Of a stretch of DNA of 44,609 bases, positions 1 to 40,212 are shown piece by piece. The position numbers and the translations under genes were made by a program. Numbering within the stretch: position 1 is the first letter of the stretch; each line of letters opens with the position of its first letter. The stretch is from an uncultured Bacilli bacterium (GTDB taxonomy: Bacteria > Bacillota_I > Bacilli_A > RF39 > UBA660): NCBI GenBank assembly GCA_947588795.1, contig CANPZJ010000001.1, positions 1-44,609 of the forward strand. The letters run 5' to 3'. Under the pieces are notes generated by a model, which had not been told where the DNA came from, did not search any database, and was given only the letters and a program-made list of their open reading frames with translations.

Positions 1-1263
1 AGCAACTGCAACACTTGCTAGTCCTAAACCTAGATACATTAAAATATTATCACCAGTTTTAGGGTTTTCTTCTTCAGTTTTTTCTGTTGTTTCAGTTTTA
101 TCAGTTGTAGATTCTTGTGTTGCTACTTTCTTAAATGTTGCTTTAACAACTACGTCTTTCTCAGGCATTTTAAATGTTAATTCAGTTTGTTCTTTGCCAT
201 CAACATATAATTTGTCTAATTCATAACCTTCATCAGCTTTAACAGTAATTTTAACTACTTCATCTTTTTGAGCAGATGCTTTATCAACTGTTACTTTACC
301 ATGTTCAGCTTCAGTTGTTACAGCATAATATTTTGTAACTGTTGCACCTTCAGCATATACAACTTTATCACCAGTAACTTCAGCACCAGCTTCAATTGTA
401 ACATCACTTTTGAATGTTAATGTAGCATTATTAGCAGTTTTAATAGTTACACCAGTAGGTACAGTAACTTTTTCTTCTACTTCTGTATCATTATAAACAG
501 TAATATCTGTTGCACCAGTTTTTTCTACTTCTGCTAATGCTTGTTCAATTGTTGGATAATAATATGATCTTTCCCCATTTGATGCAGTTATAGGGAATTC
601 AATATCATATGTAACTCTTACACAAGTATAATTAACGTCTTCTCCTTCAGTAGTTCTCCATACCCAAGCTGTATCACTTTCTGGAACCGCAAAGATAAAA
701 TCTTCACCATATTTTAAATCAGTCTTCTTAGTAAGATCTTCTAATTCTTGTTTTATTGTTTTTGTGCCATCTCCAGTTGCATCAATTTTAGTCCAAACTC
801 CATCTTTGTTATATAGAATTTGTACTCCTAGTGTCCATATAGTTGTATAATCATCATGTTTATTTGTTGCATTTTGAGCATCAGCATTTGCTCTAGCTTT
901 AGCCATAGCACAAGTAAAATCACAATCAGCTGATGTATATGCATAATGGTTATCAAAAGTTTTACCACCTTTTTCAATACCTGGATCAATACTAATATAG
1001 AAAATACCTAAACTAGCTTTTCCATTTTCACTATCAGCATCTTGATAACCAGGACTTTCAGCTAAAATTGTATCAATTGTATCTTGATCAACTCGAACTG
1101 TTACTTTAACAGTTTTGTAATTTGCTCCTTCTGCACTAGGTGTTTCTTGAACTGTTAATCCAGTCAAACCACCATTACCTAATACTAACCCTTCAGCATG
1201 TACACCAACTACTGCTACAAACATAGCAATTATTGATGTTAAAAATAATTTTAATTTTTTCAT
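1..1263 (-). CDS. Secreted, sortase-anchored surface protein, paralog 1 of 3 (3' end cut by window edge)
   Basis: Absent from the ORF track because no stop lies inside the window. My own translation is open from the ATG at 1261-1263 down to base 1. N-terminus is MKKLKLFLTSIIAMFVAVVGVHAEG, the same signal peptide as the two neighbours. The last residues are ...TEKTEEENPKTGDNILMYLGLGLASVAVA, an NPKTG motif plus hydrophobic anchor. Confidence 0.85.
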   Translation of the reverse strand, partial: MKKLKLFLTSIIAMFVAVVGVHAEGLVLGNGGLTGLTVQETPSAEGANYKTVKVTVRVDQDTIDTILAESPGYQDADSENGKASLGIFYISIDPGIEKGGKTFDNHYAYTSADCDFTCAMAKARANADAQNATNKHDDYTTIWTLGVQILYNKDGVWTKIDATGDGTKTIKQELEDLTKKTDLKYGEDFIFAVPESDTAWVWRTTEGEDVNYTCVRVTYDIEFPITASNGERSYYYPTIEQALAEVEKTGATDITVYNDTEVEEKVTVPTGVTIKTANNATLTFKSDVTIEAGAEVTGDKVVYAEGATVTKYYAVTTEAEHGKVTVDKASAQKDEVVKITVKADEGYELDKLYVDGKEQTELTFKMPEKDVVVKATFKKVATQESTTDKTETTEKTEEENPKTGDNILMYLGLGLASVAVA

Positions 1264-1322
1264 AATATCCTCTTCCTTTCTTTAAAACTATTTTGTTTTC
1301 AGTTTTCTCCTTTCCTACCATA

Positions 1323-1353
1323 AGTATACCCCCCCCCGAAATTGCAAAGTCAA
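1323..1353 (-). promoter_or_regulatory. Sigma-70-like promoter with a G9 tract in the spacer (paralog 1)
   Basis: Minus strand reads TTGACT(1348-1353)-TTGCAATTTC-G9(1329-1337)-TATACT(1323-1328), a 19-nt spacer. It lies about 60 nt upstream of the ATG at 1263. The downstream leader is nearly identical to copy 2. Confidence 0.6.
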
Positions 1354-1386
1354 CCACAATTTTTAGTTTAACAATTTTCTTGACAC

Positions 1387-1424
1387 AAAAAAACATATTA
1401 CTTTCTTTAAAGCAATATGTTTTT
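1387..1424 (-). terminator. Intrinsic terminator after paralog 2
   Basis: AAAAACATATT (1389-1399) pairs with AATATGTTTTT (1414-1424), with A/T runs on both sides. It lies just 3' of the stop at 1447. The same element recurs at 3141-3176. Confidence 0.5.
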
Positions 1425-1446
1425 ACATTTAATTTAACTTTTCAAA

Positions 1447-3018
1447 TTAATTAGTTTTTCTTAATTTTTTAACACTTAATGTAGCTACTGCAACACTGGC
1501 AAGTCCTAAACCTAGATACATTAAAATGTTATCACCAGTTTTTGGATTTTCTTCTGTTTTTTCTGTAGTTTCAGTTTTTTCAGTTGTTTCAGTTTTATCT
1601 GTTTCTACTGGGGTTTCTGATTTTTTAAATTCTACAGTTATTGTTACATCACTTGCTGGCATTTTAAACTTAACTCCACTATCAGCACTTGTAAATGTTA
1701 CTGGCTTACCATCTTTATCAGTAATAGTAACTGAATTAATTACATAACCTTTATCAGCTGTAATTTTTACAACTACTTCTTCATCTTCAGCAGCATCATT
1801 ATTTGCTTCTACTTTACCATTTTTAGGATCAGTAATTTTAATTTTATGTACTGTTCCTACTACACCACTTTCAGAAATACCTAAATTATTAGTATAAGCT
1901 AATACATCTTCAGCAGCTTCACCATTATTAGTAAATACTACACCTGCTTCAATAAATGGTTTTTCTTCATATTTTGTATTAAATGCTTCTGATACGCTTA
2001 ATGCATTTCCATCTTCAGAATTAGCAACAAATGTACCATCAGTTATTTTTATATCAACTACATTAGTTTCATCAGCGCCTGTAGCTAAATATTCATTAAA
2101 TACATAACCATTATCACTGGTATATTCTCCACCATTAATATTTACTTTAACATTTCCAGCATAACTGTTATTTGATTCTACTTGAATAGCTGCGCCTGTT
2201 GTTGTATATCCACCAACATTTCCTTCAGTAGTTTTTGCTTCTCCAGTTGCATGAACTTTTGCATTATTTAATGTTAGTGTACCAGCTTTAACAATAATGC
2301 CTGATTTACCTTCAATATATGCACCATTAATAGTAATATCTGAATCACCAGCTTGATATATAGCAGCACCTGTAGCTGTTAATTTTGCTGTTGACTCAAT
2401 AGTTATTTTTGGAGCTACAAAGCCTGGAATTGCACCACCAGTAGTTTTGCCAACATCACCAAGTATAGTTAATGCTCCACCAACTTTTTGAACTCCATTT
2501 GATTCATAAGAAACACCTTCTAAAGTTCCTTTAACTATAATTTGAGTATTAGTAACTTTTACAAGATTAGTAGATTGTTGACCAAAAACTCCAATGGCAT
2601 AACCACCTTTTACAGTGACATCTTTATCAATTTCAAGTTTAGTTGCAGAACCTTGATAATCTATAACTTGAATAGCTGAACTGCTACTATTTACACTAGT
2701 AATCTCAACAGTACCTTTACCAGTTAAAGTTAATATTCCGCCTTCAACAGAAAATACTGCAGAACTTGCTCTTTTGATGTTATGATTATTTAAATCAATC
2801 GTAATATTTTTATTACTATCAATTTTTAATAATGTTGTTGCAGTTACATCACTTTGTAAAATGATTGTTGATTCAGCACTAGTACTAGCATCATTAATAG
2901 CATCTTGTAAAGTAGTTCTACAATCACCATTTAATGTAGCTTCACATTCAGCATGAACACCAACTGTTGCAACTAACATAGCAATAATTGCTGTTACAAA
3001 TAATTTTAATTTTTTCAT
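1447..3018 (-). CDS. Secreted, sortase-anchored surface protein, paralog 2 (beta-helix-like passenger)
   Basis: 523 aa. Signal peptide is MKKLKLFVTAIIAMLVATVGVHA. The passenger has short G/T/N-rich beta-strand repeats (ILTLTGKGTVEI, TLNNAKVHATG). A C-terminal Ig-like module and a TETTEK stalk follow. The tail is ENPKTGDNILMYLGLGLASVAVATLSVKKLRKTN. Confidence 0.9.
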   Translation of the reverse strand: MKKLKLFVTAIIAMLVATVGVHAECEATLNGDCRTTLQDAINDASTSAESTIILQSDVTATTLLKIDSNKNITIDLNNHNIKRASSAVFSVEGGILTLTGKGTVEITSVNSSSSAIQVIDYQGSATKLEIDKDVTVKGGYAIGVFGQQSTNLVKVTNTQIIVKGTLEGVSYESNGVQKVGGALTILGDVGKTTGGAIPGFVAPKITIESTAKLTATGAAIYQAGDSDITINGAYIEGKSGIIVKAGTLTLNNAKVHATGEAKTTEGNVGGYTTTGAAIQVESNNSYAGNVKVNINGGEYTSDNGYVFNEYLATGADETNVVDIKITDGTFVANSEDGNALSVSEAFNTKYEEKPFIEAGVVFTNNGEAAEDVLAYTNNLGISESGVVGTVHKIKITDPKNGKVEANNDAAEDEEVVVKITADKGYVINSVTITDKDGKPVTFTSADSGVKFKMPASDVTITVEFKKSETPVETDKTETTEKTETTEKTEENPKTGDNILMYLGLGLASVAVATLSVKKLRKTN

Positions 3019-3077
3019 AATATCCTCTTCCTTTCTTTAAAACTATTTTGTTTTCAGTTTTCTCCTTTCCTACTATA

Positions 3078-3106
3078 AGGATACCCCCCCGAATTTATAA
3101 AGTCAA
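3078..3106 (-). promoter_or_regulatory. Sigma-70-like promoter with a G7 tract in the spacer (paralog 2)
   Basis: Minus strand reads TTGACT(3101-3106)-TTATAAATTC-G7(3084-3090)-TATCCT(3078-3083), a 17-nt spacer. Confidence 0.6.
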
Positions 3107-3140
3107 TCGCGTTTTTTCATTTATCATTTTATTTGACATC

Positions 3141-3176
3141 AAAAAACATATTACTTATATCAAGCAATATGTTTTT
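3141..3176 (-). terminator. Intrinsic terminator after paralog 3
   Basis: AAAAAACATATT (3141-3152) pairs with AATATGTTTTT (3166-3176). It lies 3' of the stop at 3199 and is homologous to 1387-1424. Confidence 0.5.
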
Positions 3177-3198
3177 CATATAATTTTAATTTTTTAAA

Positions 3199-4497
3199 TC
3201 AGTTAGATTTTCTAAGCTTTTTAACACTTAATGCAGCAACTGCAACACTTGCTAGTCCTAAACCTAGATACATTAAAATATTATCACCAGTTTTAGGGTT
3301 TTCTTCTTCAGGTTTTGTAGTTTGAGTTGTTACTGATGCTGATACTTCTTTTAATCCTTTTATAGCATCATTTAATTCTTTTACAGCTTGATCAATTTTA
3401 TCTTGTTCATCAGCTTTTAAATCTTTTTGTACTGCTTCAGCATTTTTAATAGCAGTTTCTAATGCTTTTACAGTTTCTTCTGTATATTTTGTTTTATCAA
3501 CTGCTTTAGCATCTTTTAATGCTTTTTCTAATTCACTATAATCAGCATCTTTTAATACAACATTACCATTTTCATCTACTTCATGATTATTATCAATGTA
3601 AGTTGCTATATTTGAATCTTCTGAATAATTACCACCAAGAACATTTAATTCATCTTCACCTTGGTTATAAAATAACAATTCAGCATCAAAGTCGCCACCT
3701 TTTATTGTTAATTCTGCGTTATTATCACCTTGTTTTTGGTTAGTAATTAATGAGTTATGTTCATCTTCTCCAGCAGTTTTAAATTCTCCATCTGTAATTG
3801 TCATTTCTTTAGTATTAACTAAAACTGAATAATCATAATTTTGAGTAAATGTACCACCATTAACTGTAGCACTACCATTATTTGATACTGCCCAAGATTT
3901 AGCTATTCCAGTTGAAAAATCACCATCATTTATAGTAAGTGTACCATCATTATGGATAGCAGCAGCTCCTTCTTTTAATGATTTAAATGTACCACCATTT
4001 ACTATCATTTCACCATAATTATAAATTGTAGATAATCCATTATCTGCTTCTGCATTTATTAAATATTCACCAGCTTCAATAGTTAATTTACCATTATTTA
4101 CAATAGTTGACATTCTGTTAGTATCATCTGCTAAAGTAACTTTACCAGCATGATTACTAGATGTATCAATAATTGTTAATTCAGCATCTTCCGCAATATC
4201 AATTGCAACTTCATAATTATTAAGTCCGCAATGATCAGCTTGTCCATCACACCAGTTAGTTAAAGTGTTACCATTTAAGTCTAAAACAACTTTTTCGCCG
4301 GCTTTTACTTGTAGTCCAGCATTTGAATCATGAGTTAATTTTATTGTAACTACATCATTATCACTTGTTACTATAGATTCCCAATCACGTTCATGCCAGT
4401 CAGAAGCATCACCACCAGTAATTCCAGCAGCATGAACACCAACTACTGCTACGAACATAGCAATTATCGATGTTAAAAACAATTTTAATTTTTTCAT
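3199..4497 (-). CDS. Secreted, sortase-anchored surface protein, paralog 3 (beta-helix-like passenger plus helical FIVAR-like segment)
   Basis: 432 aa. Signal peptide is MKKLKLFLTSIIAMFVAVVGVHA. A helical segment reads YSELEKALKDAKAVDKTKYTEETVKALETAIKNAEAV. The tail is EENPKTGDNILMYLGLGLASVAVAALSVKKLRKSN. Confidence 0.9.
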   Translation of the reverse strand: MKKLKLFLTSIIAMFVAVVGVHAAGITGGDASDWHERDWESIVTSDNDVVTIKLTHDSNAGLQVKAGEKVVLDLNGNTLTNWCDGQADHCGLNNYEVAIDIAEDAELTIIDTSSNHAGKVTLADDTNRMSTIVNNGKLTIEAGEYLINAEADNGLSTIYNYGEMIVNGGTFKSLKEGAAAIHNDGTLTINDGDFSTGIAKSWAVSNNGSATVNGGTFTQNYDYSVLVNTKEMTITDGEFKTAGEDEHNSLITNQKQGDNNAELTIKGGDFDAELLFYNQGEDELNVLGGNYSEDSNIATYIDNNHEVDENGNVVLKDADYSELEKALKDAKAVDKTKYTEETVKALETAIKNAEAVQKDLKADEQDKIDQAVKELNDAIKGLKEVSASVTTQTTKPEEENPKTGDNILMYLGLGLASVAVAALSVKKLRKSN

Positions 4498-4562
4498 AAT
4501 ATCCTCTTCCTTTCTTTAAAATCGTTTGTTTAATTTGTAAACGTTTTTCCTTTCTTATTATA

Positions 4563-4592
4563 AGTATACCCCCCCCGAATTTATAAAGTCAA
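4563..4592 (-). promoter_or_regulatory. Sigma-70-like promoter with a G8 tract in the spacer (paralog 3)
   Basis: Minus strand reads TTGACT(4587-4592)-TTATAAATTC-G8(4569-4576)-TATACT(4563-4568), an 18-nt spacer. TATAAT follows immediately. Confidence 0.6.
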
Positions 4593-4624
4593 TATGATTT
4601 TTTATCTCTGTTAATAATTGACAC

Positions 4625-4777
4625 TTATTTTATTTTTTTATCTTTCATCATTTTATTTATTACTAAAACAATGACTACGATACTTATTATTCCTAGTCCA
4701 ACAAAAAGATAGATACTATCTAAAGTATTAGGATTTTCAATTATTACTTGTTTAGCAAGTTCTAATAAATTTGTCAT
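4625..4777 (-). CDS. 50-aa ORF consisting almost only of a degenerate sorting-signal-like tail (possible relic)
   Basis: There is an internal ATG at 4775-4777 with GAAGGGAAG upstream. The product MTNLLELAKQVIIENPNTLDSIYLFVGLGIISIVVIVLVINKMMKDKKIK aligns with the ENPKTGDNILMYLGLGLASVAVA..KK tails of the neighbours. It has no signal peptide and no passenger. Confidence 0.3.
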   Translation of the reverse strand: MTNLLELAKQVIIENPNTLDSIYLFVGLGIISIVVIVLVINKMMKDKKIK

Positions 4778-4812
4778 TTTATTCTTCCCTTCTATTATCA
4801 AAATTAGTTTGC

Positions 4813-4851
4813 ACAAAAAAACATATTATTATACAAATTCAATAATATGTT
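4813..4851 (-). terminator. Intrinsic terminator ending the mraZ-PBP operon
   Basis: AACATATTATT (4820-4830) pairs with AATAATATGTT (4841-4851) across a 10-nt loop. A T7 run follows on the minus strand (A run 4815-4821). Confidence 0.6.
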
Positions 4852-6953
4852 TATTTACTTAATGTTACTTCTAATACTTGATCATTACTAATAGTTGTTC
4901 CTACTGGTATACTTTGTGTAGTTACATAACCATAACCATTTGTTTTAACATCTATACCAAGAAGATTTGCATAAGTCATAATTTCACTTAAACTCCAGCC
5001 AGTTAAATCTTCCATTACATAATCATGTTTATTACTTACTAAAAATACTTTACTACCTTCTAAGGCTTCGCCACCTTTTAATGGGTATTGATTAATAACA
5101 TAACTACCTGTTCCAAGTTTATATACTTTTAATTTTTTATTTTGTAAATCTTCTACTGTAGTATTCATATCTTTACTAATATAATTATCTAGTTTAATTA
5201 CTTTAGTATTTATTTCTTGAGAAGAATTTTCTATACCTAAATTAGATACGATATCATCGACTGCTTTCGTAAGTTGTTCGGCGATTGGTCTTGCACTAGA
5301 TGATGATAATTGTTTAGCAGCCACATAAACAATATATTTTGGATCTTCTTCTGGAAATATTCCCGCAAAAGAACGAACATAATCATAACTACCTTTTAAG
5401 TATCCACCATTTGGTGATGCTATTTGGGCAGTTCCTGTTTTACCCATCATATTTGTAAGCGTTGGCCGATACATTTTATTACTTTCTAGTCCTTCATAAA
5501 CAACATTATGCATTAATTTTTGCATATAATCAGTTGTTTCTTTACTAAATACTTTAGCAACTTCTGTTCTTTTACCATCATAGATAATTTCGCCATCATC
5601 ACCAACTATTTTATCAACAACATAAGGTTTTAAAACAGTACCATCATTAGTAATTGAAGATAGCGCTTGTAACATTTGAATTGGCGTAACTGTAATACCT
5701 TGACCAAAGGCTGCAGTTGCGAGGTCTGTTTTATATTTAATATTTACTTTACCAGATACTTCATTAGCAAGTTCTATCCCTGTTTTTTTACTAAATCCTA
5801 ATTTTTTATAATAATCAGTTAAAGTAGCACTACCAACAGACTCACCAATATAAGTAGCGCCAACATTAGATGAATATGCAAAACCAGTATCAAAGTTAAT
5901 TTCGCCAAAACCATAATCGTTAAAGTCGCAAATTTTCGCATCTGCTATTTCACGACAACCTGATTTAAAAGTTTTAGTGCCATCATATTTACCTTCATTT
6001 ATACTTGTTGCCCACGAAAATATTTTCATAACACTACCAGGTTCATATTCGTAAGACACAAGTGGATTAGTATAAATCTCCAAAGTGCTTAAATCATTTG
6101 GATTAAAATTAGGATAAGTAGAACTTGCTACAATAGCACCAGTTTTCGCATCCATTACCGAAAACACCATAAAGTCCATATCATATTCTGCCGCTAAATT
6201 ACGTGTTAGAGTTTCGGCAAACCATTGAATACGATTATCAATAGTAAGATAGATTCCTGCCCCATCAACCGCATCTTCAGTTATTACTTCCGCACTGGGA
6301 AGAGTATAGCCATAAGCATCAGTTTGATAAGTAGTTTTACCATCTGTACCAGATAGTTCTTTATCATAATAAGATTCAATGCCAAGTTCTCCTACAATAT
6401 CGCCATCTTCTTGCGTTTTAGCATAGCCTACAATGTATGAGGCAAATTGTCCCATATTATAATGTCTTTTTTGGCCTTGAATAAAATCTATTCCTGGCAT
6501 ATTTAATTTTTCTATTTCATTTTTTTTAGCCTCAGATATGCCACTACCCTTACTACCAAATTCAGTTTGATAAATACCTTCCTTACTTAAAAGTTTAACT
6601 GCTTTATCATAATCTATCCCAAGTTCTTCATTAAGCATTTTAGCAGTACCTTCAATATCTACGACGTGTTGAGGTTTCTTTGGATCAGTAGTTCTACTAG
6701 GCTCTAAGTAAGCAATAATTTTATAAGAATTAACTGTTGATGCTAACATATTACCTCTACTATCATAAATATTACCTCTTTTAGCATAGATAACATTACT
6801 TTTAGTATTTCTGTTGCTAGCAAATTCATGTAAGTTAATTCCATCAATATTATTACTTAATGCAATAAAAGATAATCTTCCAATAATGGCTACAAATAAA
6901 AAAGCCACAATAAAAATTAATATCCTTGGTATTTTTACTGTAACTTTTCTCAT
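4851..6953 (-). CDS. pbpB: Class B penicillin-binding protein (FtsI/PBP2B/SpoVD family) with two C-terminal PASTA domains
   Basis: 700 aa with an N-terminal TM. Transpeptidase motifs SVMK, SSN and KTGTA are present. There are two PASTA-like repeats at the C-terminus. It lies downstream of ftsL in the dcw cluster. Confidence 0.95.
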   Translation of the reverse strand: MRKVTVKIPRILIFIVAFLFVAIIGRLSFIALSNNIDGINLHEFASNRNTKSNVIYAKRGNIYDSRGNMLASTVNSYKIIAYLEPSRTTDPKKPQHVVDIEGTAKMLNEELGIDYDKAVKLLSKEGIYQTEFGSKGSGISEAKKNEIEKLNMPGIDFIQGQKRHYNMGQFASYIVGYAKTQEDGDIVGELGIESYYDKELSGTDGKTTYQTDAYGYTLPSAEVITEDAVDGAGIYLTIDNRIQWFAETLTRNLAAEYDMDFMVFSVMDAKTGAIVASSTYPNFNPNDLSTLEIYTNPLVSYEYEPGSVMKIFSWATSINEGKYDGTKTFKSGCREIADAKICDFNDYGFGEINFDTGFAYSSNVGATYIGESVGSATLTDYYKKLGFSKKTGIELANEVSGKVNIKYKTDLATAAFGQGITVTPIQMLQALSSITNDGTVLKPYVVDKIVGDDGEIIYDGKRTEVAKVFSKETTDYMQKLMHNVVYEGLESNKMYRPTLTNMMGKTGTAQIASPNGGYLKGSYDYVRSFAGIFPEEDPKYIVYVAAKQLSSSSARPIAEQLTKAVDDIVSNLGIENSSQEINTKVIKLDNYISKDMNTTVEDLQNKKLKVYKLGTGSYVINQYPLKGGEALEGSKVFLVSNKHDYVMEDLTGWSLSEIMTYANLLGIDVKTNGYGYVTTQSIPVGTTISNDQVLEVTLSK

Positions 6954-8866: not shown

Positions 8867-10384
8867 ATGGAAACAAATTCAACTAGTAAACTTATCGAAA
8901 TTGCAAAAAATAAAGGAATTATATTTAGAAGAGGAGAAAAAACTTTATTTACAAAATATAGTTATTTTCAAGTTATAAATGCTTATAAGAATCTTTTTAC
9001 TTATGACGAGGATACTATTGATGAAATAAAAAATAACATTGTTAATAAAGTAAAAGTTGAATTTTATAAAACATCATTTCAAATAAAAAATGATGTTTCT
9101 GATGATAAATTGTACGAAACAATATGCAATAAAATATGTAAAAAATATGGATTAAGTGGTCAAACTTTGTTAGAAAAAGAAGAGCAAATAAAAAGTATAA
9201 AATACCACCATCATATCTATAATCAAGGTACATTGTATACTGATTTCGTAAGAATGTATAAATTTGAACATGAATTAAGAATGATGTTATTAAAATATAC
9301 TTTAATAGTAGAAGAAAGTATAAAAAACATTTTTATTTCTTATCTTAATGACAAAAATGCTGAACCAAATTATTTAGTGAATATGGATAATTATAATACC
9401 AATTCTTTAAAATCAAAATCTTTTGATACAATGAAATTGATAATCGATAAATATGATAACCAAAAATCAAAACCAATAAAACGAAAAAGAGATCAACATT
9501 TAATTGTTCCATACTGGATTATTATTAACGAATTAGCGATGAATCAAACATATTATGCAATGGCAAATTTAAATTCAGATGATTCATATAAGATATTTTT
9601 AAGATGTTTAAATTTTTTTACAAATCTTAATTTGTCAGAAGAAAAAAGAGGAAAAACACCAAAACAATTAAATTATGAAAAGAAAATGGTTAACAATTTT
9701 AAAACTTTATTATGTTATTTAGGTGAATTTAGAAATATGTTAGCACATAACCAACCTATATATTGTTATAATGTATTAAATTATAATATTAATGGTAATC
9801 CTAAGTTTGAATATGAATTGCCACTAGTTAATCCTTCATATATAGATAAAACCGGAAATAAAGTAGATATAAAAAAACAACAAATAAATATAATGGGATC
9901 TTTAATGAATAGTTTAAAAGAATATTTTGGCAGTGATAATTTCAACTCAAATAATTCAACTAAATTAGATCTTTCAAAAATAATATATATTTTATATAAA
10001 ATGCTAAAACATATTGATAAAAACACTAATTTTTATTCTGAATTAGTCGAAATATATTCAAAATATAATATAATTTTAAGTAAATCAGTTATTAATGTGG
10101 AAAATCCCAAAAAAATCAACGAAATGAAAAATGCTATTTCAAAATTGTCTACATATGATATGGAAATATCTAGTTTTATTAAAAAAATAGAATCTGGTAA
10201 AGCTTATAAATCAGGTTTAAAGTCTAAAGAAAGACAGTTAAAGGATATAACAAAACAAATAAATACCATATTAAAAAGCATTAATGTCAATGTGGTTAAA
10301 TCTAAATATAAACATTTTCCAGTAGGAAAACGATATACTGAATTTACAGGAATTAATTCAAACTTTTTTAATAATATAAAATAA
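8867..10384 (+). CDS. Abi_2 (AbiD/AbiF-like) abortive-infection protein, HEPN-type, with a long C-terminal extension
   Basis: 505 aa. Family hallmarks are YKFEHELRMMLLKYTLIVEESIKNIF and LGEFRNMLAHNQPIY, where RNMLAH is the RX4H HEPN motif. The last ~170 aa are an unrecognised, K/N-rich, coiled-coil-like extension. Confidence 0.75.
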   Translation: METNSTSKLIEIAKNKGIIFRRGEKTLFTKYSYFQVINAYKNLFTYDEDTIDEIKNNIVNKVKVEFYKTSFQIKNDVSDDKLYETICNKICKKYGLSGQTLLEKEEQIKSIKYHHHIYNQGTLYTDFVRMYKFEHELRMMLLKYTLIVEESIKNIFISYLNDKNAEPNYLVNMDNYNTNSLKSKSFDTMKLIIDKYDNQKSKPIKRKRDQHLIVPYWIIINELAMNQTYYAMANLNSDDSYKIFLRCLNFFTNLNLSEEKRGKTPKQLNYEKKMVNNFKTLLCYLGEFRNMLAHNQPIYCYNVLNYNINGNPKFEYELPLVNPSYIDKTGNKVDIKKQQINIMGSLMNSLKEYFGSDNFNSNNSTKLDLSKIIYILYKMLKHIDKNTNFYSELVEIYSKYNIILSKSVINVENPKKINEMKNAISKLSTYDMEISSFIKKIESGKAYKSGLKSKERQLKDITKQINTILKSINVNVVKSKYKHFPVGKRYTEFTGINSNFFNNIK

Positions 10385-12427: not shown

Positions 12428-12802
12428 ATGAAGGATTACTTACGCGATTTAAAATTATTAAAAGAAGAAGATATTATTTGGTATATATATTATTTTATTG
12501 TAACATTTGCCATTATTGCTAATAGTTTTGAAGAAAAATATATTTATGAAGGTAATAAAAAAGATCGCTTAAATGGTCGTAAAATAAATGTTGTTCTTTT
12601 AATAATTGCCCTACTTATTTATATTTATTATGTAATTATTGCTATTCAAGATTTAAATTTAAGTAAAAGTAAAGATGCAAATAGACAAAGAATTGCGATG
12701 GAAAGATTAATTACAACTTTAGTATTTTTAGTTGGTGGTGCCTTATCTTTATATACTGAGCTAGATGATAATGCTGGTGATGTAGATTTAGCTATCTTCT
12801 AA
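12428..12802 (+). CDS. Small 3-TM membrane protein, unknown function
   Basis: 124 aa with three hydrophobic segments. No family recognised. Confidence 0.55.
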   Translation: MKDYLRDLKLLKEEDIIWYIYYFIVTFAIIANSFEEKYIYEGNKKDRLNGRKINVVLLIIALLIYIYYVIIAIQDLNLSKSKDANRQRIAMERLITTLVFLVGGALSLYTELDDNAGDVDLAIF

Positions 12803-13936
12803 CTAACATTATAATATATTTTATTTTTTTCTAAAGGAACATTTTTTAATTTAAATAATTCCGATACACTCATTACTTGATAACCTTTACTATATAAAAT
12901 AGGTAGTAATTCTTCAATAGCAGAAGCACTACTATCATAAGCATCATGAAATAAAATAATATCACCATCTTTAATATTATCAATTACATAATTAACTAAA
13001 TAATCACTACTACGATAACGCCAGTCATTAGTGTCTAGACTCCATAATATGTATGATGCATCAAGTAAAGTTTGTTGACTTTCATTTATAGAACCATATG
13101 GTGGTCTTATTAAATTCATATTCTCGTTAAATATGCTTTGATAAAATTCATTCATATTTTTAAAATCATTTATTACTTCTTCATCACTAAGTTTTTTCAT
13201 ATTTTGATGATGATAAGTATGACTACCTATTTCATTACCTAAATTTTTAATATTTATAAGTAAATCTTTATTATAGACTGCTCTTTCGCCAACAATAAAA
13301 AAAGTTGCATGAAAATGATTATCTTGAAGTGATGCTAAAATACGATCAGTTTTATTTTTATTAGGACTATCATCAAAAGTAATGGCGACACTTTTCTTCG
13401 CATTAGTATAATCATATCCAGATTCATTTTGATAATCTTTATCTAAAGATGCGGTAAAATTAATACAATCTTTTATTTCATTATAATTTACTTTTAGATA
13501 TAGAAGCTCTTCTACTTGTGGGTTAGTTTCGACATTATTAAAATAAATTACTAATTCATTATCTCTTAAAATATAACTTTTATTTATGTTTTCATTTATT
13601 AAAGTATCGGCGACAAATTTCGGATATTTTAATATTATAATCTTCTATTTTTTCTTCTTTAATCAAATCTTCTATTTTAAGTTCATTTTCGGTTCCATAT
13701 TCATATATTTTACTTAAATAATTATCATAACTATCTTTATATAAATAACTAGTTATACTTTCGCCTAGAGTATTTTTTTCGACTAAAACATAATTATTAT
13801 CATTCTCATAAAAACATAAATCTACCTTAGATTCTTCTTTTTTATTACTAAATATACTAATAGTTACTATATTTACAATAACCATTAAAAATATTATAAA
13901 AATAGCTATTTTTAAATATAAACTCTTTCTTTCCAT
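12799..13936 (-). pseudogene. Polysaccharide deacetylase (NodB/CE4 domain) split by a 1-nt frameshift
   Basis: ORF 13592-13936 encodes the TM-anchored N-terminus. A second frame is open from 13644 to 12799 with no start codon until 13200. That frame carries all five NodB motifs: TFDDSP, HTYHH, RPPYG, DTNDW and ILFHD. Both frames are open only across 13592-13644. Confidence 0.7.
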
Positions 13937-26018: not shown

Positions 26019-26783
26019 TTAGTCACTTATTTTCTTGGCCACTACAACAAAGCGACCATTTTCTCTTGAATATTCACAAGTTGATAAAGTAATTAATTTA
26101 TCACCATATTTGGCATCTACTCCAGTATCAAATTTTGATGCCTTTTTGGCATTACTGACAAAATCATTATATGCTTCTTCACTTTCGGCATTAACAAAAT
26201 AATAATAACGAAAAACATTAGTCTCATTTGAATAATATACTCTACTATAGAATATTGCTAATATTTCATAAGTAGCATCTTCTTCTAAAGTAGTTAAATT
26301 AATCGTTTTATGTTCTTCATAAAAATCTTTTTTCGCATATTTAATTAATGGTTCAAACATTAAACCATATTTATTTCGATGACCATATATTTGTAAATTA
26401 TCACTTTCATTTATTTTGACATCTTTATCAAAATAAATGGCTCCCGCTGATGATTTTTCATTTTTATAATTATGGTTTAAATAATAGTCATTATCCGTTG
26501 TTTCTACTACTGGATAATTAATATCTGTTCCTTCTATTTCTAACCAAGCTACGACATTTTCATAACTTTTATGTAACTCTTTTAATTTATTAATTTTTTG
26601 TTCATGAATATCTTCTTTTTGATCTATATCATGAAATATATTAGATACATCTTTGTAAGTATTTTTATCATTACTTGCATTAGTTAATTCTACTACTATA
26701 TATGATATGCCTAGAATTATAATTAGTAACAATATAATAATTATAATAATTTTTATCGGTTTTTTGAGTTTTCTCTTATGCAT
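26019..26783 (-). CDS. srtB: Class B sortase
   Basis: 254 aa with an N-terminal TM. Motifs are VAWLEIEGTDINYPVVETTDNDYYLNH, IYGHRNKYGLMFEPLIKY, the catalytic LITLSTCEY and a downstream RFVVVAK. Confidence 0.9.
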   Translation of the reverse strand: MHKRKLKKPIKIIIIIILLLIIILGISYIVVELTNASNDKNTYKDVSNIFHDIDQKEDIHEQKINKLKELHKSYENVVAWLEIEGTDINYPVVETTDNDYYLNHNYKNEKSSAGAIYFDKDVKINESDNLQIYGHRNKYGLMFEPLIKYAKKDFYEEHKTINLTTLEEDATYEILAIFYSRVYYSNETNVFRYYYFVNAESEEAYNDFVSNAKKASKFDTGVDAKYGDKLITLSTCEYSRENGRFVVVAKKISD

Positions 26784-26796
26784 AATATTCCTCTAT

Positions 26797-26833
26797 CTAA
26801 AAAGTAGAATTAAGTTTTAAACTTAATTCTACT
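26797..26833 (-). terminator. Hairpin plus T5 between the third TPxLG paralog and srtB (partial terminator/attenuator?)
   Basis: AGTAGAATTAAGTT pairs with AACTTAATTCTACT (26803-26833), a 13-14 bp perfect AT-rich stem. TTTTTAG follows on the minus strand. The srtB SD (AGAGGAA) begins about 12 nt later. Confidence 0.5.
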
Positions 26834-26844
26834 AACTATCTATC

Positions 26845-27285
26845 TTAGTCTTTCTTTAAAACTTTGATTAAACATACACCGGCACATAATACAAGTAAAC
26901 TAGCTAGTCCAATATAACTTGGTACTCCTAAAGTTGGTGTACTATCAGCTTTAACATTGCTTAAGGCAATTACAAATGGTGATAATTCATCTACTTCTAC
27001 TGTTACTTTACCATCTATTATTTCTTTTTCAAAAGTTTCTATTGTACCATTACTTTTTTTATGAAGTACTGTCGCCTTTTCTCCATTATATTTACTATCT
27101 ACATTAAATGATACATTTAATTTTCCTTCATAATCACCATTTAATTTTACTTCATATGATCCAAGTACTTTTTTACCTTCTAATTTTTGATTTAACTCTT
27201 TATAAACATCAGAATTTGTATCTAATTTTTCAACTGCTAAAGTACTATCAATATCTTTTTTACCAACAACTGCTACACCATTATT
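26845..27285 (-). repeat. ~440-bp conserved 3' module, copy 3 of 3 (direct repeat)
   Basis: About 90% nucleotide identity by eye with 27900-28340 and 29171-29611. Boundaries are approximate. Confidence 0.7.
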
Positions 27286-27882
27286 AGTATCTTCTACACT
27301 AGTTTCATTTAAGACATATTTCCTTGTTAATGAAATTCTATAGACTTCTGTTCCTTCAGCATCATAACCAATGTATTCACCAGTACTTTCAGGTTTTAAC
27401 GCAAAGCTTTGTTCATCATAAACATTATTAACATTATAATGTTCTTTTACATCACCATACTCTGCATGATAATAAATTAATGGTGTATTACCACCAAAAC
27501 CATCAGGAAATTCATCTTTATCATATGTTACATCACCAGACACAACTCTGACAACATCATCTATAAACATCTTATGATTAAGATTGAATGTAATACTATT
27601 CTCACCAAATTCTTTTTTAAATTTATCAAATAATTCGTTACCAGCATAAATTGTTTTACCATCTATTAAAGCCTTATATACATCATAATCATTTATCTTG
27701 ATTAATAAAGTATTATCTTCAATAGAATAATCAAATACATTTCCTTTATAATTATCACTTGCCCATTCAAAATCCAATAAAGTTTTACCATCAACCTCAA
27801 GAGCTTTAACACTAGGTGTTACTACTACAAGCATTGCTAGCATAAAAATAGGAAATATTAATTTTTTTAAAATATTTTTCAT
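26845..27882 (-). CDS. Secreted surface protein, TPxLG-tail family, paralog C
   Basis: 345 aa with signal peptide MKNILKKLIFPIFMLAMLVVVTPSVKA. The variable N-terminal domain is followed by a conserved 146-aa C-terminus ending VDELSPFVIALSNVKADSTPTLGVPSYIGLASLLVLCAGVCLIKVLKKD. Confidence 0.9.
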   Translation of the reverse strand: MKNILKKLIFPIFMLAMLVVVTPSVKALEVDGKTLLDFEWASDNYKGNVFDYSIEDNTLLIKINDYDVYKALIDGKTIYAGNELFDKFKKEFGENSITFNLNHKMFIDDVVRVVSGDVTYDKDEFPDGFGGNTPLIYYHAEYGDVKEHYNVNNVYDEQSFALKPESTGEYIGYDAEGTEVYRISLTRKYVLNETSVEDTNNGVAVVGKKDIDSTLAVEKLDTNSDVYKELNQKLEGKKVLGSYEVKLNGDYEGKLNVSFNVDSKYNGEKATVLHKKSNGTIETFEKEIIDGKVTVEVDELSPFVIALSNVKADSTPTLGVPSYIGLASLLVLCAGVCLIKVLKKD

Positions 27883-27899
27883 AATTATCTTCTCCTAAA

Positions 27900-28340
27900 T
27901 TAGTCTTTCTTTAAAACTTTAATTAAGCATACACCAGCGCATAATACAAGTAAGCTTGCTAGTCCTACATAACTTGGTACTCCTAAGATTGGTGTACCAT
28001 CGGCTTTGACATTACTTAGGGCAATTACAAATGGTGATAATTCATCTACTTCTACTGTTACTTTGCCATCTGTTATTACTTTTTCAAATGTTTCAACTGT
28101 ACCATTACTTTTCTTATGTAATACTGTTGCTTTTTGGCCATTATATTTACTATCTACATTAAATGATACATTTAATTTTCCTTCATAACTACCATTTAAT
28201 TTCACTTCAAAAGCTCCAAGAACTTTTTTACCTTCTAATCTTTCATTTAATTCTTTATAAATATCTGCATTTGTATCTAACTTTTCGACTGTTAATGAAG
28301 AATCATTATCAATTGCACCACTAACACTAACATTTTTTTC
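27900..28340 (-). repeat. ~440-bp conserved 3' module, copy 2 of 3
   Basis: See 26845-27285. Confidence 0.7.
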
Positions 28341-29159
28341 TTCATTAGTAACAGTCGTACCAGCATATTCCATTCTTATTTTTAAAGTTGTATAACCACT
28401 ATTATCTCTTTCACGAACAATTCCAGTATCAGCCCATAAATAAGCATCTGTTTCTTTATAATTTCTAATCAAAAATTCAGAATTTATATAAGATGCAATT
28501 GGTGCTCCAACAGGAAAACCTGATCTCCAACTATTATTTTCTTCATCATAAGCAAATAAAATTCCAGAATAATCTAAATAAACAAAATTACCTTTACTAT
28601 CTTGACTATGAAAATCATCATCAACACTATATGATCTAGTTCCTGATTGATAAGTCACTAAGTCATCTGTGATTGGTGCTATAGTTATGTCTTTTATATC
28701 ATCTTGAAAATATATTTTAATCATTAGGCTAACAACTCCATCATTTACATATGGCACTAATTTTTGCCATAATTCTGGAGTTTCTTTTTCAGTTATATCT
28801 TTTTTATTCACTATTGCTTTATATAAATCATAATCTTTTACTTTAACTACAATCTCGTTATTTGCATAAGTAAAATCAAATATATTATTTTGATGAGCAA
28901 CATTATAACCAACTGTAATATAATCTTCAGGTTTTAATTCTGTATTACCTTTATATATCGGATAAATAAGTTCACCTTGATAATTTTCGTGATCTTCAGA
29001 TTCCTTATATTTTTCATATTCTTCATTAAACTTTTTATAACTTTCTAAAACTTTATCTTTATCAGTAAACATTTCTGTTTTCATTTCTGCCATAGTTACT
29101 ACTGGTAATAACATAATAGCAAATACTATAGCAAAACATATTTTATTAATTTTTTTCAT
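27900..29159 (-). CDS. Secreted surface protein, TPxLG-tail family, paralog B
   Basis: 419 aa with a signal peptide ending VTMA. The conserved C-terminus ends ...NVKADGTPILGVPSYVGLASLLVLCAGVCLIKVLKKD. Confidence 0.9.
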   Translation of the reverse strand: MKKINKICFAIVFAIMLLPVVTMAEMKTEMFTDKDKVLESYKKFNEEYEKYKESEDHENYQGELIYPIYKGNTELKPEDYITVGYNVAHQNNIFDFTYANNEIVVKVKDYDLYKAIVNKKDITEKETPELWQKLVPYVNDGVVSLMIKIYFQDDIKDITIAPITDDLVTYQSGTRSYSVDDDFHSQDSKGNFVYLDYSGILFAYDEENNSWRSGFPVGAPIASYINSEFLIRNYKETDAYLWADTGIVRERDNSGYTTLKIRMEYAGTTVTNEEKNVSVSGAIDNDSSLTVEKLDTNADIYKELNERLEGKKVLGAFEVKLNGSYEGKLNVSFNVDSKYNGQKATVLHKKSNGTVETFEKVITDGKVTVEVDELSPFVIALSNVKADGTPILGVPSYVGLASLLVLCAGVCLIKVLKKD

Positions 29160-29170
29160 AGCTTTTTCTC

Positions 29171-29611
29171 CTAATCTTTCTTTAAAACTTTAATTAAACA
29201 TACACTGGCACATAACACAAGTAAACTAGCTAGTCCTACATAGCTTGGTACTCCTAAAGTTGGTGTACTATCTTCTTTGACATCACTTAATGCAATTACA
29301 AATGGTGATAATTCATCTACTTCTACTGTTACTTTACCATCTGTTATTACCTTTTCAAATGTTTCAATTGTACCATTACTTTTCTTATGAAGTACTGTTG
29401 CCTTTTCTCCATTGTATTTACTATCTACATTAAATGATACATTTAATTTTCCTTCATATTCACCATTTAATTTTACTTCAAAGGCTCCAAGTAATTTTTT
29501 GCCTTCTAATCTTCCTACTAATTCTTTATATACATCTGCTTTTGTATCTAACTTTTCTACTGTTAAAGTAGTATCCATATTTTTTTTACCTGTAACTGAT
29601 ACACCATTATT
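29171..29611 (-). repeat. ~440-bp conserved 3' module, copy 1 of 3
   Basis: See 26845-27285. Confidence 0.7.
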
Positions 29612-30355
29612 TTCATCTGCTACACTTGATTCACCAAGTTCATAACTAAATTTTATTTTAGAAGTAAATACTTCATTGCCATTTGCATCAAGGCCAACAA
29701 ACTTATAAGTATAGCCCCAGTTGTAATCCCATTCTCCGCTCTTTTGTAATGGTGTCCAAACAACAGTCGTTTTACCATCAACAGAATCATACCAGGCATC
29801 AAATAAAACACCAGCTCTATCGGAATCATAATAATATTTACCATTTTCATCTTGTTTAATATTTATACCACCATTTAAATCAAAAACACCATTATCTTCT
29901 TCTTTGCCATCTTGGTTATATAATAAAAATGAAATTTTTGTAACATTATCAGGAAAATAAATATGCGGATGTAACCCTAGTGTCCCTTGAACTTCGGTTC
30001 TATCTTCATCTTCAATTGGAATTTCTTTTAAATATTTAGATAATTTATTATAAAGTGGTGTTCCTTCTCTTATTAAAGTATCAGTTTTTGAATCAGAGCC
30101 ATTAATACTTTCTTGCCAAGTTTTGTCTACTAACACTAGCTCATTGTAAAGATCAATATCTTTAACTTTTAACACTACTTCACCATTTTCATAAGTATAA
30201 TCAAATACTTCGCCTAATCCTTGATATGGTATTAAAGTAATAAATTCCTTTGAGTCAATTTCCTCTGCTCTAACCATTGTTGGTACCATAAATAACATCA
30301 TTGTTAAACATAATATTGTTGAAAATATACTTGTTAATTTTTTCAATTTTCTCAT
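29171..30355 (-). CDS. Secreted surface protein, TPxLG-tail family, paralog A (first gene of the block)
   Basis: 394 aa with a signal peptide ending MVRA. The conserved C-terminus ends ...DVKEDSTPTLGVPSYVGLASLLVLCASVCLIKVLKKD. GGAG sits only 1 nt from the ATG at 30355, so the in-frame TTG at 30344-30346 (MKKLTS...) is an alternative start. Confidence 0.85.
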   Translation of the reverse strand: MRKLKKLTSIFSTILCLTMMLFMVPTMVRAEEIDSKEFITLIPYQGLGEVFDYTYENGEVVLKVKDIDLYNELVLVDKTWQESINGSDSKTDTLIREGTPLYNKLSKYLKEIPIEDEDRTEVQGTLGLHPHIYFPDNVTKISFLLYNQDGKEEDNGVFDLNGGINIKQDENGKYYYDSDRAGVLFDAWYDSVDGKTTVVWTPLQKSGEWDYNWGYTYKFVGLDANGNEVFTSKIKFSYELGESSVADENNGVSVTGKKNMDTTLTVEKLDTKADVYKELVGRLEGKKLLGAFEVKLNGEYEGKLNVSFNVDSKYNGEKATVLHKKSNGTIETFEKVITDGKVTVEVDELSPFVIALSDVKEDSTPTLGVPSYVGLASLLVLCASVCLIKVLKKD

Positions 30356-30374: not shown

Positions 30375-30404
30375 ATTATAATATACCCCCCCCGAAAAAA
30401 TCAA
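30375..30404 (-). promoter_or_regulatory. Promoter with a G8 tract in the spacer, heading the TPxLG/sortase block
   Basis: Minus strand reads TTGATT(30399-30404)-TTTTC-G8(30386-30393)-TATAT-TATAAT(30375-30380), an 18-nt spacer. The core TTC-G(n)-TATA is shared with the three promoters at 1323-4592. Confidence 0.55.
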
Positions 30405-38759: not shown

Positions 38760-38852
38760 AAAGTATCATAATTTCCCTTATCAATTACCGCTTGACATTT
38801 ATATACATTAGTGTTATTATAGACGACAAATTCACAAAGGGGGGATTTTGAT

Positions 38853-40211
38853 ATGAACGGTGAATTAGAAAAAATAAAAGAATATGAGGCAAAATTAGCT
38901 GCCCGAAAGGCATTAAAGAAAACCTATGATGACCAAATCAAAAAAGGTAGAATTTTAACAGATGAAGAAACTAAGGAACATCTAGCATTATGTGATGAAA
39001 TTAAACTTTTAAAGGATAAAATTAAAGAACTAAAATCTCATAAAGCTAATGATAATCAAGATATTGAAGAAGCCGAAACAGAAAAAAAACAAAAAAGAAT
39101 TCAAGCTGCTTTAATTGGCCTTGCATGTCTTACAAGTATGGGAATTGGAATAGTTGCAACTAAAGTTTTTTCAGAACCTAAAAATAATTCTGAAAAAACT
39201 AGTGATGATACTAAAGCAACTGAAGAACCAGTTGCTACAATAGCTCCTACTGATGCTTATAACTATGAAGAAAACACTTATGTAGCACCTGAAACTGAAG
39301 TTATTAATACTCCTGAACCTACTGTTATACCAGAACCTGCTGCTACACCAGTTCCAACACCTGATGTTACGATAACTCCTGAACCTACTTTAACTCCAGA
39401 ACCAACTGCTACACCAGTTCCAACACCAAGTAATCCATTTATGAATGTAATGGGTTATAATGAAGCATATTTAAAAGATTATGAAGATGCAATGAATAGA
39501 TATAATATTTTAGCTGAAAAAGCAGTTGACTATGTTAATCGTACTCATATTATTCAAGATAATTATCATTTCTTTGCAGAAACAAGTATTAATGAAGCTC
39601 TTAAAGTAATAATGGCTATTGATCAAAGAGAAATAATGACAGATGAAAATAACAATGTTGCTGATGCAATGAATAATTCACTTAATACTGTTTTAGATGG
39701 TGTCTTATGGAAAGGCTTAACTGATGCCGATATAGCTAAGTTAGATGCTATACCTTATTTTGCGGAAGAAGGTACTGATTTAAATATCCATTTAAAAGAA
39801 TATGCAAGACTTGCTAAAGATGCAATTGTTAACCAAACTGAAGAAGCATTTAATAATATGTATCAATACTTACAAATATTTACATTAAGTCAATTTGATA
39901 ATACTTTAGCGGTAAATATCATAGAACCTGATGGTTCAATTACTGAAAGACCAGTAAATGAATCAACTGTTGAAATTGTTGGTACTGTAACAAGAGAATT
40001 TTATGATGCTGCAACTGTTAATAATGTTTTTGATTGGTGGATGGCTTACAATTCATTTATAAAACCACTTTATAGTACATACTTTCCTTATGATTATTAT
40101 GATGAAAGAGTTAGAAGATGGGAAGACTTGCAATGTATTATGCAATCTGGTATGGAAGATCCTAAATTTGATGAAGTATGTGGTAATTCATTAACACTTG
40201 GAGGTGAATAA
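38853..40211 (+). CDS. Bitopic protein: N-terminal coiled coil, TM, PEPT-rich linker, unknown C-terminal domain
   Basis: 452 aa. The promoter is TTGACA-17 nt-TATTAT upstream, with SD AAAGGGGGG. The linker PEPTVIPEPAATPVPTPDVTITPEPTLTPEPTATPVPTP is encoded by a duplicated ~66-bp unit. Confidence 0.8.
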   Translation: MNGELEKIKEYEAKLAARKALKKTYDDQIKKGRILTDEETKEHLALCDEIKLLKDKIKELKSHKANDNQDIEEAETEKKQKRIQAALIGLACLTSMGIGIVATKVFSEPKNNSEKTSDDTKATEEPVATIAPTDAYNYEENTYVAPETEVINTPEPTVIPEPAATPVPTPDVTITPEPTLTPEPTATPVPTPSNPFMNVMGYNEAYLKDYEDAMNRYNILAEKAVDYVNRTHIIQDNYHFFAETSINEALKVIMAIDQREIMTDENNNVADAMNNSLNTVLDGVLWKGLTDADIAKLDAIPYFAEEGTDLNIHLKEYARLAKDAIVNQTEEAFNNMYQYLQIFTLSQFDNTLAVNIIEPDGSITERPVNESTVEIVGTVTREFYDAATVNNVFDWWMAYNSFIKPLYSTYFPYDYYDERVRRWEDLQCIMQSGMEDPKFDEVCGNSLTLGGE

Positions 40212-40212
40212 T

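Follow-up and report, generated by a model that had tools for sequence, protein, structure and literature searches.

The window analyzed in this study is a 44,609-nucleotide (nt) stretch of contig CANPZJ010000001.1 (assembly GCA_947588795.1, positions 1 to 44,609) from an uncultured Bacilli bacterium. It begins with three tandem genes for predicted surface proteins, each preceded by a promoter-like sequence in which a run of G residues occupies part of the spacer between the -35 and -10 hexamers. A fourth promoter of this kind stands at the head of an operon for secreted proteins. The promoters of tandem copies 1 to 3 and the fourth promoter were all read on the minus strand; on the forward strand, the tracts appear as C runs.

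Surface-protein genes and their poly-G promoters

Upstream of the copy 1 gene (1..1263, minus strand), the promoter at 1323..1353 reads TTGACT (1353-1348), TTGCAATTTC, G9 (1337-1329), and TATACT (1328-1323), with a 19-nt spacer made up of 10 nt and G9. The copy 2 gene (1447..3018, minus strand) is preceded at 3078..3106 by TTGACT (3106-3101), TTATAAATTC, G7 (3090-3084), and TATCCT (3083-3078), giving a 17-nt spacer (10 nt and G7). The copy 3 gene (3199..4497, minus strand) has at 4563..4592 the elements TTGACT (4592-4587), TTATAAATTC, G8 (4576-4569), and TATACT (4568-4563), giving an 18-nt spacer (10 nt and G8), and this promoter was the top consensus match within positions 1-5000 in a promoter scan. 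In the tandem promoters, the segment from the -35 hexamer to the tract is a constant 10 nt and the -10 hexamer directly abuts the tract, so that tract length alone sets the spacer: G7 gives 17 nt, G8 gives 18 nt, and G9 gives 19 nt. The fourth poly-G promoter (30375..30404, minus strand) consists of TTGATT, an 18-nt spacer that includes G8 (30393-30386), and TATAAT, and it lies 30 nt 5' of the start codon of a secreted protein.

The GC content of the 44.6-kb window is 26.6%, and a composition model of independent and identically distributed bases predicts about 0.1 runs of C and 0.006 runs of G with 7 nt or more in it. Four G/C runs of this length were found, at 1329-1337, 3084-3090, 4569-4576, and 30386-30393, and all four sit in promoter-like spacers upstream of signal-peptide genes. 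The next longest G/C run in the window is a G6 (38839-38844), which is a ribosome-binding site. The promoters, 5' untranslated regions (5'UTRs), and signal-peptide coding starts of copies 1 to 3 align closely and are near-identical; besides tract length, copy 2 has the weaker -10 hexamer (TATCCT), and copy 1 differs by three substitutions within the 10 nt that precede the tract. An earlier account of the window, made from its letters and referred to here as the sequence-only reading, had described this promoter anatomy, and we recovered the same tracts, spacers, and coordinates in every detail. Its companion statements also hold for the whole window: the four tracts are the sole G/C homopolymers of at least 7 nt, even a single such run is unexpected in DNA of more than 70% A+T, the flanks are near-identical with tract length as the main difference (apart from the minor ones just given), and all four tracts precede genes for secreted proteins, with signal peptides found at each.

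Consensus promoter and terminator scans were uninformative in DNA that is 73% AT, where AT-rich terminators were missed, and RNA folding was used instead. An intrinsic terminator with a 16-bp stem and a U run follows copy 2 (1385..1428, minus strand; z = -5.0) and insulates promoter 1, and another with a 16-bp stem follows copy 3 (3136..3181, minus strand; z = -5.1) and insulates promoter 2. These strong terminators (z about -5) lie about 30 nt upstream of the -35 hexamers of promoters 1 and 2, which indicates that copies 1 and 2 rely on their own promoters. A weaker terminator-like hairpin with a 13-bp stem and U7 follows the PBP gene (4812..4852, minus strand; z = -2.0), about 220 nt upstream of promoter 3, and copy 3 is probably likewise an insulated unit with its own promoter. 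These data support the assignment of the tracts as real, non-random features inside the predicted -35/-10 spacers of separate surface-protein transcription units.

Other accounts of the tract-bearing region were rejected. By eye, the hexamers match sigma-A, and the sigma-E and sigma-K consensus sequences do not fit, which argues against sporulation-sigma promoters. A G-quadruplex was rejected because each promoter has a single G run, and transcriptional slippage was rejected because the tract lies upstream of the predicted start site.

The transcribed leader is conserved as well. The 5'UTR of copy 1 (1264..1322, minus strand; about 60 to 70 nt) contains a 5'-proximal AGGAAAGGAG and the true Shine-Dalgarno (SD) sequence, GGAAGAGGA, and equivalent 5'UTRs lie at 3019-3077 (copy 2) and 4498-4562 (copy 3) on the minus strand. 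The 5'-proximal element (AAGAAAGGAA in copy 3) is itself Shine-Dalgarno-like and is found on the minus strand at 1303-1315, 3058-3070, and 4545-4556, a few nt past the predicted start site and remote from the real SD and ATG. Its counterpart in the species with (TA)n promoters described below is AAGGAAGGAGG. We take this element to be reminiscent of STAB-SD, the 5' mRNA stabilizer of Bacillus cry3A.

The products of the tandem genes have a common plan, in which a variable passenger is followed by a Thr/Glu/Lys linker coded by 9-nt tandem repeats and then by a sorting signal. Copy 1, which is cut by the window edge, encodes at least 421 amino acids (aa) with a signal peptide, a Flg_new_2 domain, a TEKTE linker, and an ENPKTGD motif. 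Copy 2 (523 aa) has a signal peptide, a beta-rich passenger, a Flg_new_2 domain, and an NPKTG sorting signal. Copy 3 (432 aa) has a signal peptide, a predicted beta-solenoid at residues 39-315, a three-helix bundle at 321-380, a linker, and an NPKTG sorting signal. The signal peptide of copies 2 and 3 is MKKLKLF...VHA, and their C terminus, ENPKTGDNILMYLGLGLASVAVA..KKLRKSN, comprises ENPKTGD, a hydrophobic stretch, and a KKLRK tail. Copy 1 shares the signal peptide and ENPKTGD; the window edge falls inside its hydrophobic segment, and the tail lies beyond it. The description of all three as sortase-anchored NPKTG proteins in the sequence-only reading is thus borne out by a full signal in copies 2 and 3 and, for copy 1, by the part that lies within the window. 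The signal peptides have an AxA-type cleavage site and no lipobox Cys. Tandem repeats of 9 and 18 nt (73-108 and 1536-1604) code for the TEKTETTEK linker just ahead of NPKTG and could permit variation in stalk size.

The AlphaFold2 model of copy 3 (mean pLDDT, 83.6) contains the solenoid and the bundle at the residues given above. A structure search with this model returned no PDB match below E = 0.01; the solenoid was weakly similar to other solenoid or beta-helix proteins, and the bundle resembled a FIVAR-like bundle. The copy 2 passenger had no homologue above 40% identity, and exact-protein look-ups returned no record for the PBP, the sortase, or copy 2 of the window.

The window also encodes a class B sortase (26019..26783, minus strand; TIGR03064, 174.5 bits against a cutoff of 153.75). 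Class B sortases are the class known to process NPKTG/NPQTN-type signals. Copies 1 to 3 are predicted to be sortase-anchored through a class-B-type sorting signal, with their putative cognate sortase encoded in the same window. The enzyme is a candidate for the NPKTG proteins, and the adjoining TPTLG proteins are alternative candidate substrates. The latter are encoded by the three-gene operon (26845..30355, minus strand) that has the fourth poly-G promoter at its head. Its genes (29171-30355, 27900-29159, and 26845-27882) encode paralogous secreted proteins of 394, 419, and 345 aa, and a terminator with a 14-bp stem (about 26784-26844) closes the operon directly upstream of the sortase gene. 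The three paralogues have a near-identical C terminus, VDELSPFVIALS..TPTLGVPSY..hydrophobic..KVLKKD, an unusual TPTLG-type sorting signal.

A 50-aa open reading frame (ORF) with neither a signal peptide nor a passenger (4625-4777, minus strand) separates the PBP gene from the first surface gene. It consists of little beyond a sorting-signal-like ENPNTLDSIYLFVGLGIISIVVIVLV..KMMKDKK and resembles the NPNTLD-type tails of the homologous proteins P0004, P0006, and P0022. The ORF is kept in the related contigs L006 (13870-14022), L007, L008, and L050 (50 aa) and in L049 (47 aa), and it may have been left behind by a deleted surface gene or encode a small membrane peptide.

Promoter repeats in related rabbit-gut bacteria

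Homologues were found only in rabbit-gut assemblies, whose metagenome-assembled genomes carry the NCBI name "uncultured Bacilli bacterium, isolate Lapin-0xx". L-numbers denote contigs of these related assemblies, and P-numbers denote homologous proteins compared with those of the window. A search of a genome collection with the family alignment confirmed at least four loci and brought up the species with (TA)n promoters. A scan of JGI metagenomes for TTGACTTNNNAANTTCGGGGGGG gave 25 matches and no relative; 24 came from a single unrelated repeat family, on contigs with 37-53% GC, and the remaining match was due to chance. In all, 40 repeat-bearing promoters were tabulated, of which 33 are poly-G (4 from the window and 29 from the related assemblies) and the rest are (TA)n. 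The layout seen in the window, with the tract between predicted -35 and -10 hexamers (TTGACT and TATACT, 17-19 nt apart, in the tandem promoters), is kept in the 40 promoter copies of the assemblies examined.

The closest relatives form, with the window, a cluster of five lineages with identical MraZ: the window and L020; L006, L047, and L008; L016 and L049; L050; and L007. Over the dcw region, the other lineages are 91-94% identical to the window. Three surface-protein genes come after the PBP gene and a 47-50-aa ORF in the four lineages with contigs that extend beyond the first promoter; the L007 contig stops at that promoter. Every promoter of this cluster reads TTGACT-N10-G(n)-TATACT, save for the TATCCT of window copy 2. 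The copy 1 promoter of the window is homologous to G8 promoters of L006, L016, and L050, and the copy 3 promoter is identical in L020, a contig from another sample.

The passengers at this locus are wholly different between the lineages of the cluster, whereas promoter, UTR, signal peptide, and sorting signal are kept. The window encodes proteins of 432, 523, and at least 421 aa; in L006, they measure 584, 481, and 440 aa; in L049, 565, 504, and 418 aa; and in L050, 585, 456, and 453 aa. This turnover spans positions 1-4497 of the window, 14149-19038 of L006, 8121-12954 of L049, and 3955-8816 of L050. It looks like cassette replacement through recombination between the conserved ends.

Poly-G promoters were also found beyond the cluster. 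In a second species (L001 and L002; 65% protein identity), the promoters read TCGACA-N8-G9-TATAAT and TCGACA-N7-G10-TATAAT, both with 17-nt spacers. When L001 and L002, which come from different samples, were aligned over 8,108 nt, there were no mismatches and a single indel, which is G9 versus G8 in the first promoter. In a third species (L003-L005), four tandem genes of another secreted family (about 320 aa in L003) each have a poly-G promoter of the form TTGCTT-N9-G8-TATAAT or TTGCAT-N8-G8-TA-TATAAT, with spacers of 17-18 nt. At about 8240-8275 of L003, the gene for P0002, the closest L003 homologue of copy 3, has the promoter TTGACA-N10-G5-TAGAAT with a 15-nt spacer, and its four neighbors have G8; this G5 may be a decayed or locked tract.

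In a fourth, sister species (L017-L019), the same promoter position is occupied by a different repeat, TTGACA-(TA)n-TATAAT, where n is 8, 10, or 11 and the spacers are 13, 17, or 19 nt. These promoters lie at 1820 of L017; 2079, 3907, and 5562 of L018; and 2103, 3905, and 5562 of L019, and their 5'UTRs and signal peptides are clearly homologous to those of the window. Five indels separate L018 from L019, which are 97.7% identical; two of these indels fall in (TA)n repeats, with (TA)10 versus (TA)11 and (TA)11 versus (TA)8. A more distant homologue, L048, has a promoter without a repeat.

Across species, then, poly-G is kept though the -35 hexamers and flanks differ, and the spacer still totals 17-18 nt. 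What is conserved is the repeat itself and not the neighboring sequence, a pattern that is hard to explain by descent alone at about 27% GC. That a different kind of repeat occupies this promoter position in the sister species suggests that mutability is under selection. Retention of the repeat while the flanks diverge, compensation of the spacing to 17-18 nt, and the second repeat type favor a selected mutable spacer over a fixed element. The L001/L002 indel and the (TA)n differences further show that promoter repeats change on very short evolutionary scales. Differences in repeat length between close relatives, which the sequence-only reading called for, separate L001 from L002 and L018 from L019 and set the G7 and G9 of the window apart from the G8 of its four sister lineages; most same-lineage pairs are invariant. 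Contig ends near tracts (L007 and L004) were considered as a sign of heterogeneity and rejected, since repeated promoter/UTR sequence explains assembly breaks equally well.

A candidate promoter-spacing switch

We consider it probable, with moderate confidence, that the poly-G tracts are functional, mutable promoter-spacing switches. In this model, poly-G is a simple-sequence repeat in a sigma-A-type spacer, and each promoter would drive one insulated surface-protein transcription unit. Slipped-strand mispairing during replication would alter G(n) by +1 or -1, and the change would shift the -35/-10 spacing, and hence promoter strength, heritably and reversibly. Each added base turns the -35 hexamer relative to the -10 hexamer by about 34 degrees and moves it by 0.34 nm. 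The G run would supply G at -14 and -15 at any length, leaving spacing as the only variable. Judging from porA and tp0126 (PMC7864442), the sigma-A holoenzyme would use spacers of 17-18 nt well and those of at least 19 or at most 16 nt poorly. In the window, copy 2 (17 nt, weak TATCCT) and copy 3 (18 nt) are predicted to be active and copy 1 (19 nt) to be weak. The assignment of 17-18 nt as active and 19 nt as attenuated, also proposed in the sequence-only reading, is a reasonable prediction from the general behavior of sigma-70/sigma-A promoters.

The 1-nt steps of poly-G would be expected to give graded output, and the 2-nt steps of (TA)n would come closer to ON/OFF. A clean ON/OFF switch is no more likely than a graded control of volume. 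The outcome would be a volume or ON/OFF dial for each gene of a hypervariable beta-solenoid family and, separately, for the three-gene TPTLG-type operon. Combinatorial display of the passengers would be an extrapolation from this model.

Several points weigh against the switch interpretation. Of the 13 distinct promoters in the five-lineage cluster, 11 carry G8 (18 nt); the other two are those with the G7 and G9 of the window, which both come from the consensus of one assembly. Contigs of the same lineage from different samples (L006/L047/L008, L016/L049, and the window/L020) are invariant at all tracts. The L001 and L002 contigs have a coverage of only 5-6x. Consensus promoter matches are no commoner in the AT-rich window than in shuffled sequence, so that the promoter assignment rests on position, conservation, and terminator insulation. 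Lengthening a spacer by one nt, from 17 to 18 nt, usually has only a modest effect on promoter strength. Being dominant in the consensus assemblies, G8 looks like the state favored in vivo; its dominance would mean either that slippage is not very fast or that the 18-nt state is strongly favored there. Heterogeneity inside a population, on which phase variation hinges, the start site, and the effect of tract length on expression are predictions of the model.

The stability of G8 is what would be seen if the G run were a fixed promoter element, either a rigid G/C block that tunes spacer geometry or a supplier of G at -14, held at G8 by purifying selection. The occasional +1 and -1 variants would then be rare slips, neutral or slightly harmful and without adaptive value. 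G8 with an 18-nt spacer is the form of 21 of the 22 listed promoters of other assemblies and of the copy 3 and fourth promoters of the window, and it holds over five lineages whose flanking DNA differs by 6-9%, as it does between samples of one lineage. However, other species hold the tract at G8-G10 with compensating flank lengths, and the sister species swaps it for (TA)n with spacers of 13, 17, and 19 nt, which cannot all function. The sole difference between L001 and L002 in 8.1 kb falls in the tract, and a fixed spacing needs no hypermutable sequence. A fixed element is on this evidence unlikely. It is also improbable, and more so, that the G9, G7, and G8 of the window are assembly or consensus errors around a true state of G8 at all three promoters, with the tracts themselves being real. 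G7 and G9 were seen nowhere else in the cluster, and other contigs matching the lineage of the window have a coverage of 1.8-2.4x. Yet the dcw-region genes of the window are intact and of the same length as their orthologues, with no homopolymer-type assembly noise seen; the one broken gene found stems from a 23-nt deletion and not from a homopolymer slip. The related assemblies are SPAdes contigs, and window copy 3 agrees with L020. Even if such errors were present, the G9/G8 and (TA)n polymorphisms elsewhere would remain.

A further proposal would place control with a factor and not with tract length, poly-G being either bound by a dedicated regulator or a landmark at which passenger cassettes are exchanged by recombination. 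The tract is common to unrelated families (the NPKTG proteins, the TPTLG proteins, and the approximately 320-aa secreted proteins of L003), as in a possible regulon, and passengers are exchanged between conserved 5' and 3' ends. Against this, the position of the tract relative to the -10 hexamer varies by 0-5 nt and its flanks are not conserved, and a sequence-specific site cannot be reconciled with the (TA)n that takes the place of the tract in homologous promoters. For a landmark, the conserved UTR, signal-peptide, and sorting-signal sequences already suffice for homologous recombination. We regard this proposal as very improbable.

The promoter-spacing switch accordingly stays our preferred explanation, at the confidence given above. 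For the sequence-only reading, which had put the tracts forward as slipped-strand phase-variation switches, conservation across species, the L001/L002 indel, and the (TA)n lengths speak in favor, and the stability of G8 in the cluster of the window weakens it. Surface proteins whose passengers are wholly different between lineages at the same locus are typical products of contingency genes. We tentatively propose, at somewhat less than even likelihood, a clade-wide contingency system in the style of Mollicutes and Neisseria, in which genes in arrays, for predicted sortase-anchored proteins, would have their passengers swapped as cassettes between constant 5' segments (promoter, UTR, and signal peptide) and 3' segments (sorting signal and terminator). 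Each gene would be dialed by a hypermutable spacer repeat that arose anew within the clade as poly-G or (TA)n.

Host background and relation to known switches

Further genes of the window are mraZ-rsmH-ftsL-PBP and spoIIP, and TGA serves as a stop codon; the host is thus a walled bacterium with at least one sporulation gene. In L001, an exosporium BclA-like gene adjoins the homologous surface-protein genes. Several other loci differ between lineages or stand out by their repeats. A polysaccharide deacetylase gene (12799-13936, minus strand) is split by a 23-nt deletion relative to L006, where it is intact (385 aa), and it is likely a pseudogene in the lineage of the window. Upstream of mraZ lies an Abi_2 (abortive-infection) gene (8867-10384, plus strand) that is also found in L007, L009, and L010 and is missing at this place in L006 and L049; its presence or absence by lineage indicates a strain-variable defense insertion. 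The gene at 40198-42279 (plus strand; 693 aa, no family match) contains arrays of a 93-nt tandem repeat at 41029-41293 and 41659-41917 (2.8 copies each), which code for Cys-containing 31-aa repeats. The only G6 of the window (38839-38844) sits in the ribosome-binding site of the gene upstream of it.

Repeat-driven promoter switches are textbook knowledge for Neisseria, Haemophilus, Treponema, and the mycoplasmas, and Haemophilus influenzae hif has a (TA)n promoter repeat. Proven switches based on poly-G, poly-A, or (TA)n in a promoter spacer include Neisseria meningitidis porA, Treponema pallidum tp0126, Mycoplasma hyorhinis vlp, and Mycoplasma mycoides Vmm (PMC7864442, PMC10502178, PMC2628566). 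In porA and tp0126, a G tract of about 8-11 nt sets the -35/-10 distance, 17 nt is optimal, and expression is graded (PMC7864442). The window resembles these genes in having a G homopolymer in the spacer of surface-protein promoters, and the molecular mechanism would be the same. They encode outer-membrane proteins of a Gram-negative bacterium and a spirochaete, with start sites and reporter effects shown experimentally, whereas the present system belongs to walled, spore-forming, low-GC Bacilli, has predicted sortase anchoring and a tract on each tandem paralogue, and is known from genome data.

The closest design is that of M. hyorhinis Vlp, in which tandem surface-protein paralogues with their own transcripts share a conserved promoter, 5' region, and signal peptide and carry a promoter homopolymer (PMC10502178, PMC11868660). 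Variable external domains and combinatorial potential are further likenesses. Vlp, however, uses poly(A) and consists of lipoproteins of a wall-less Mollicute, whereas the window has poly(G), an AxA signal peptide without a lipobox, NPKTG with a sortase, and beta-solenoid passengers in place of short repeats. The system is analogous to Vlp in design and is not a member of the Vlp family, as it has neither a lipobox nor poly(A). M. mycoides Vmm has (TA)n in its promoter spacer, as do L017-L019, and (TA)10 gives 17 nt (PMC2628566, PMC10502178). The (TA)n form occurs in relatives of the window and not in the window, the protein family is unlike that of Vmm, and our knowledge of it is likewise genomic. 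A G-tract switch has been described in a gut commensal for the sortase-dependent pili of Bifidobacterium breve (PMC9187656); there, the tract lies within coding sequence and causes frameshifting in an actinobacterium, whereas here it lies in a promoter and would act through spacing.

Phase variation of gut Firmicutes in the literature searched takes the form of DNA inversion, as in Clostridioides difficile cwpV, pdcB, and cmrRST. In the searchable literature on phase variation, no promoter-spacer repeat switch was reported in walled, spore-forming Firmicutes, in keeping with the sequence-only reading, which knew of none for sortase-anchored proteins of a low-GC spore former. Its precedents vlp and porA are indeed promoter-spacer homopolymer switches (PMC10502178, PMC7864442). 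The proposed mechanism is a known one, and the lineage and protein class are new.

If the switch interpretation is true, this would be the first promoter-repeat switch system in endospore-forming Firmicutes, and an uncultured commensal would vary its cell-wall proteome through localized promoter hypermutation. At one promoter position, a single gene family would have recruited both poly-G and (TA)n, two different repeat chemistries. Promoter-repeat phase variation would then be a commensal strategy detectable in metagenomes, with loci usable as markers of expression in vivo. In the rabbit gut, the hypervariable beta-solenoid surface-protein family is likely to be targeted by host immunity or phages.

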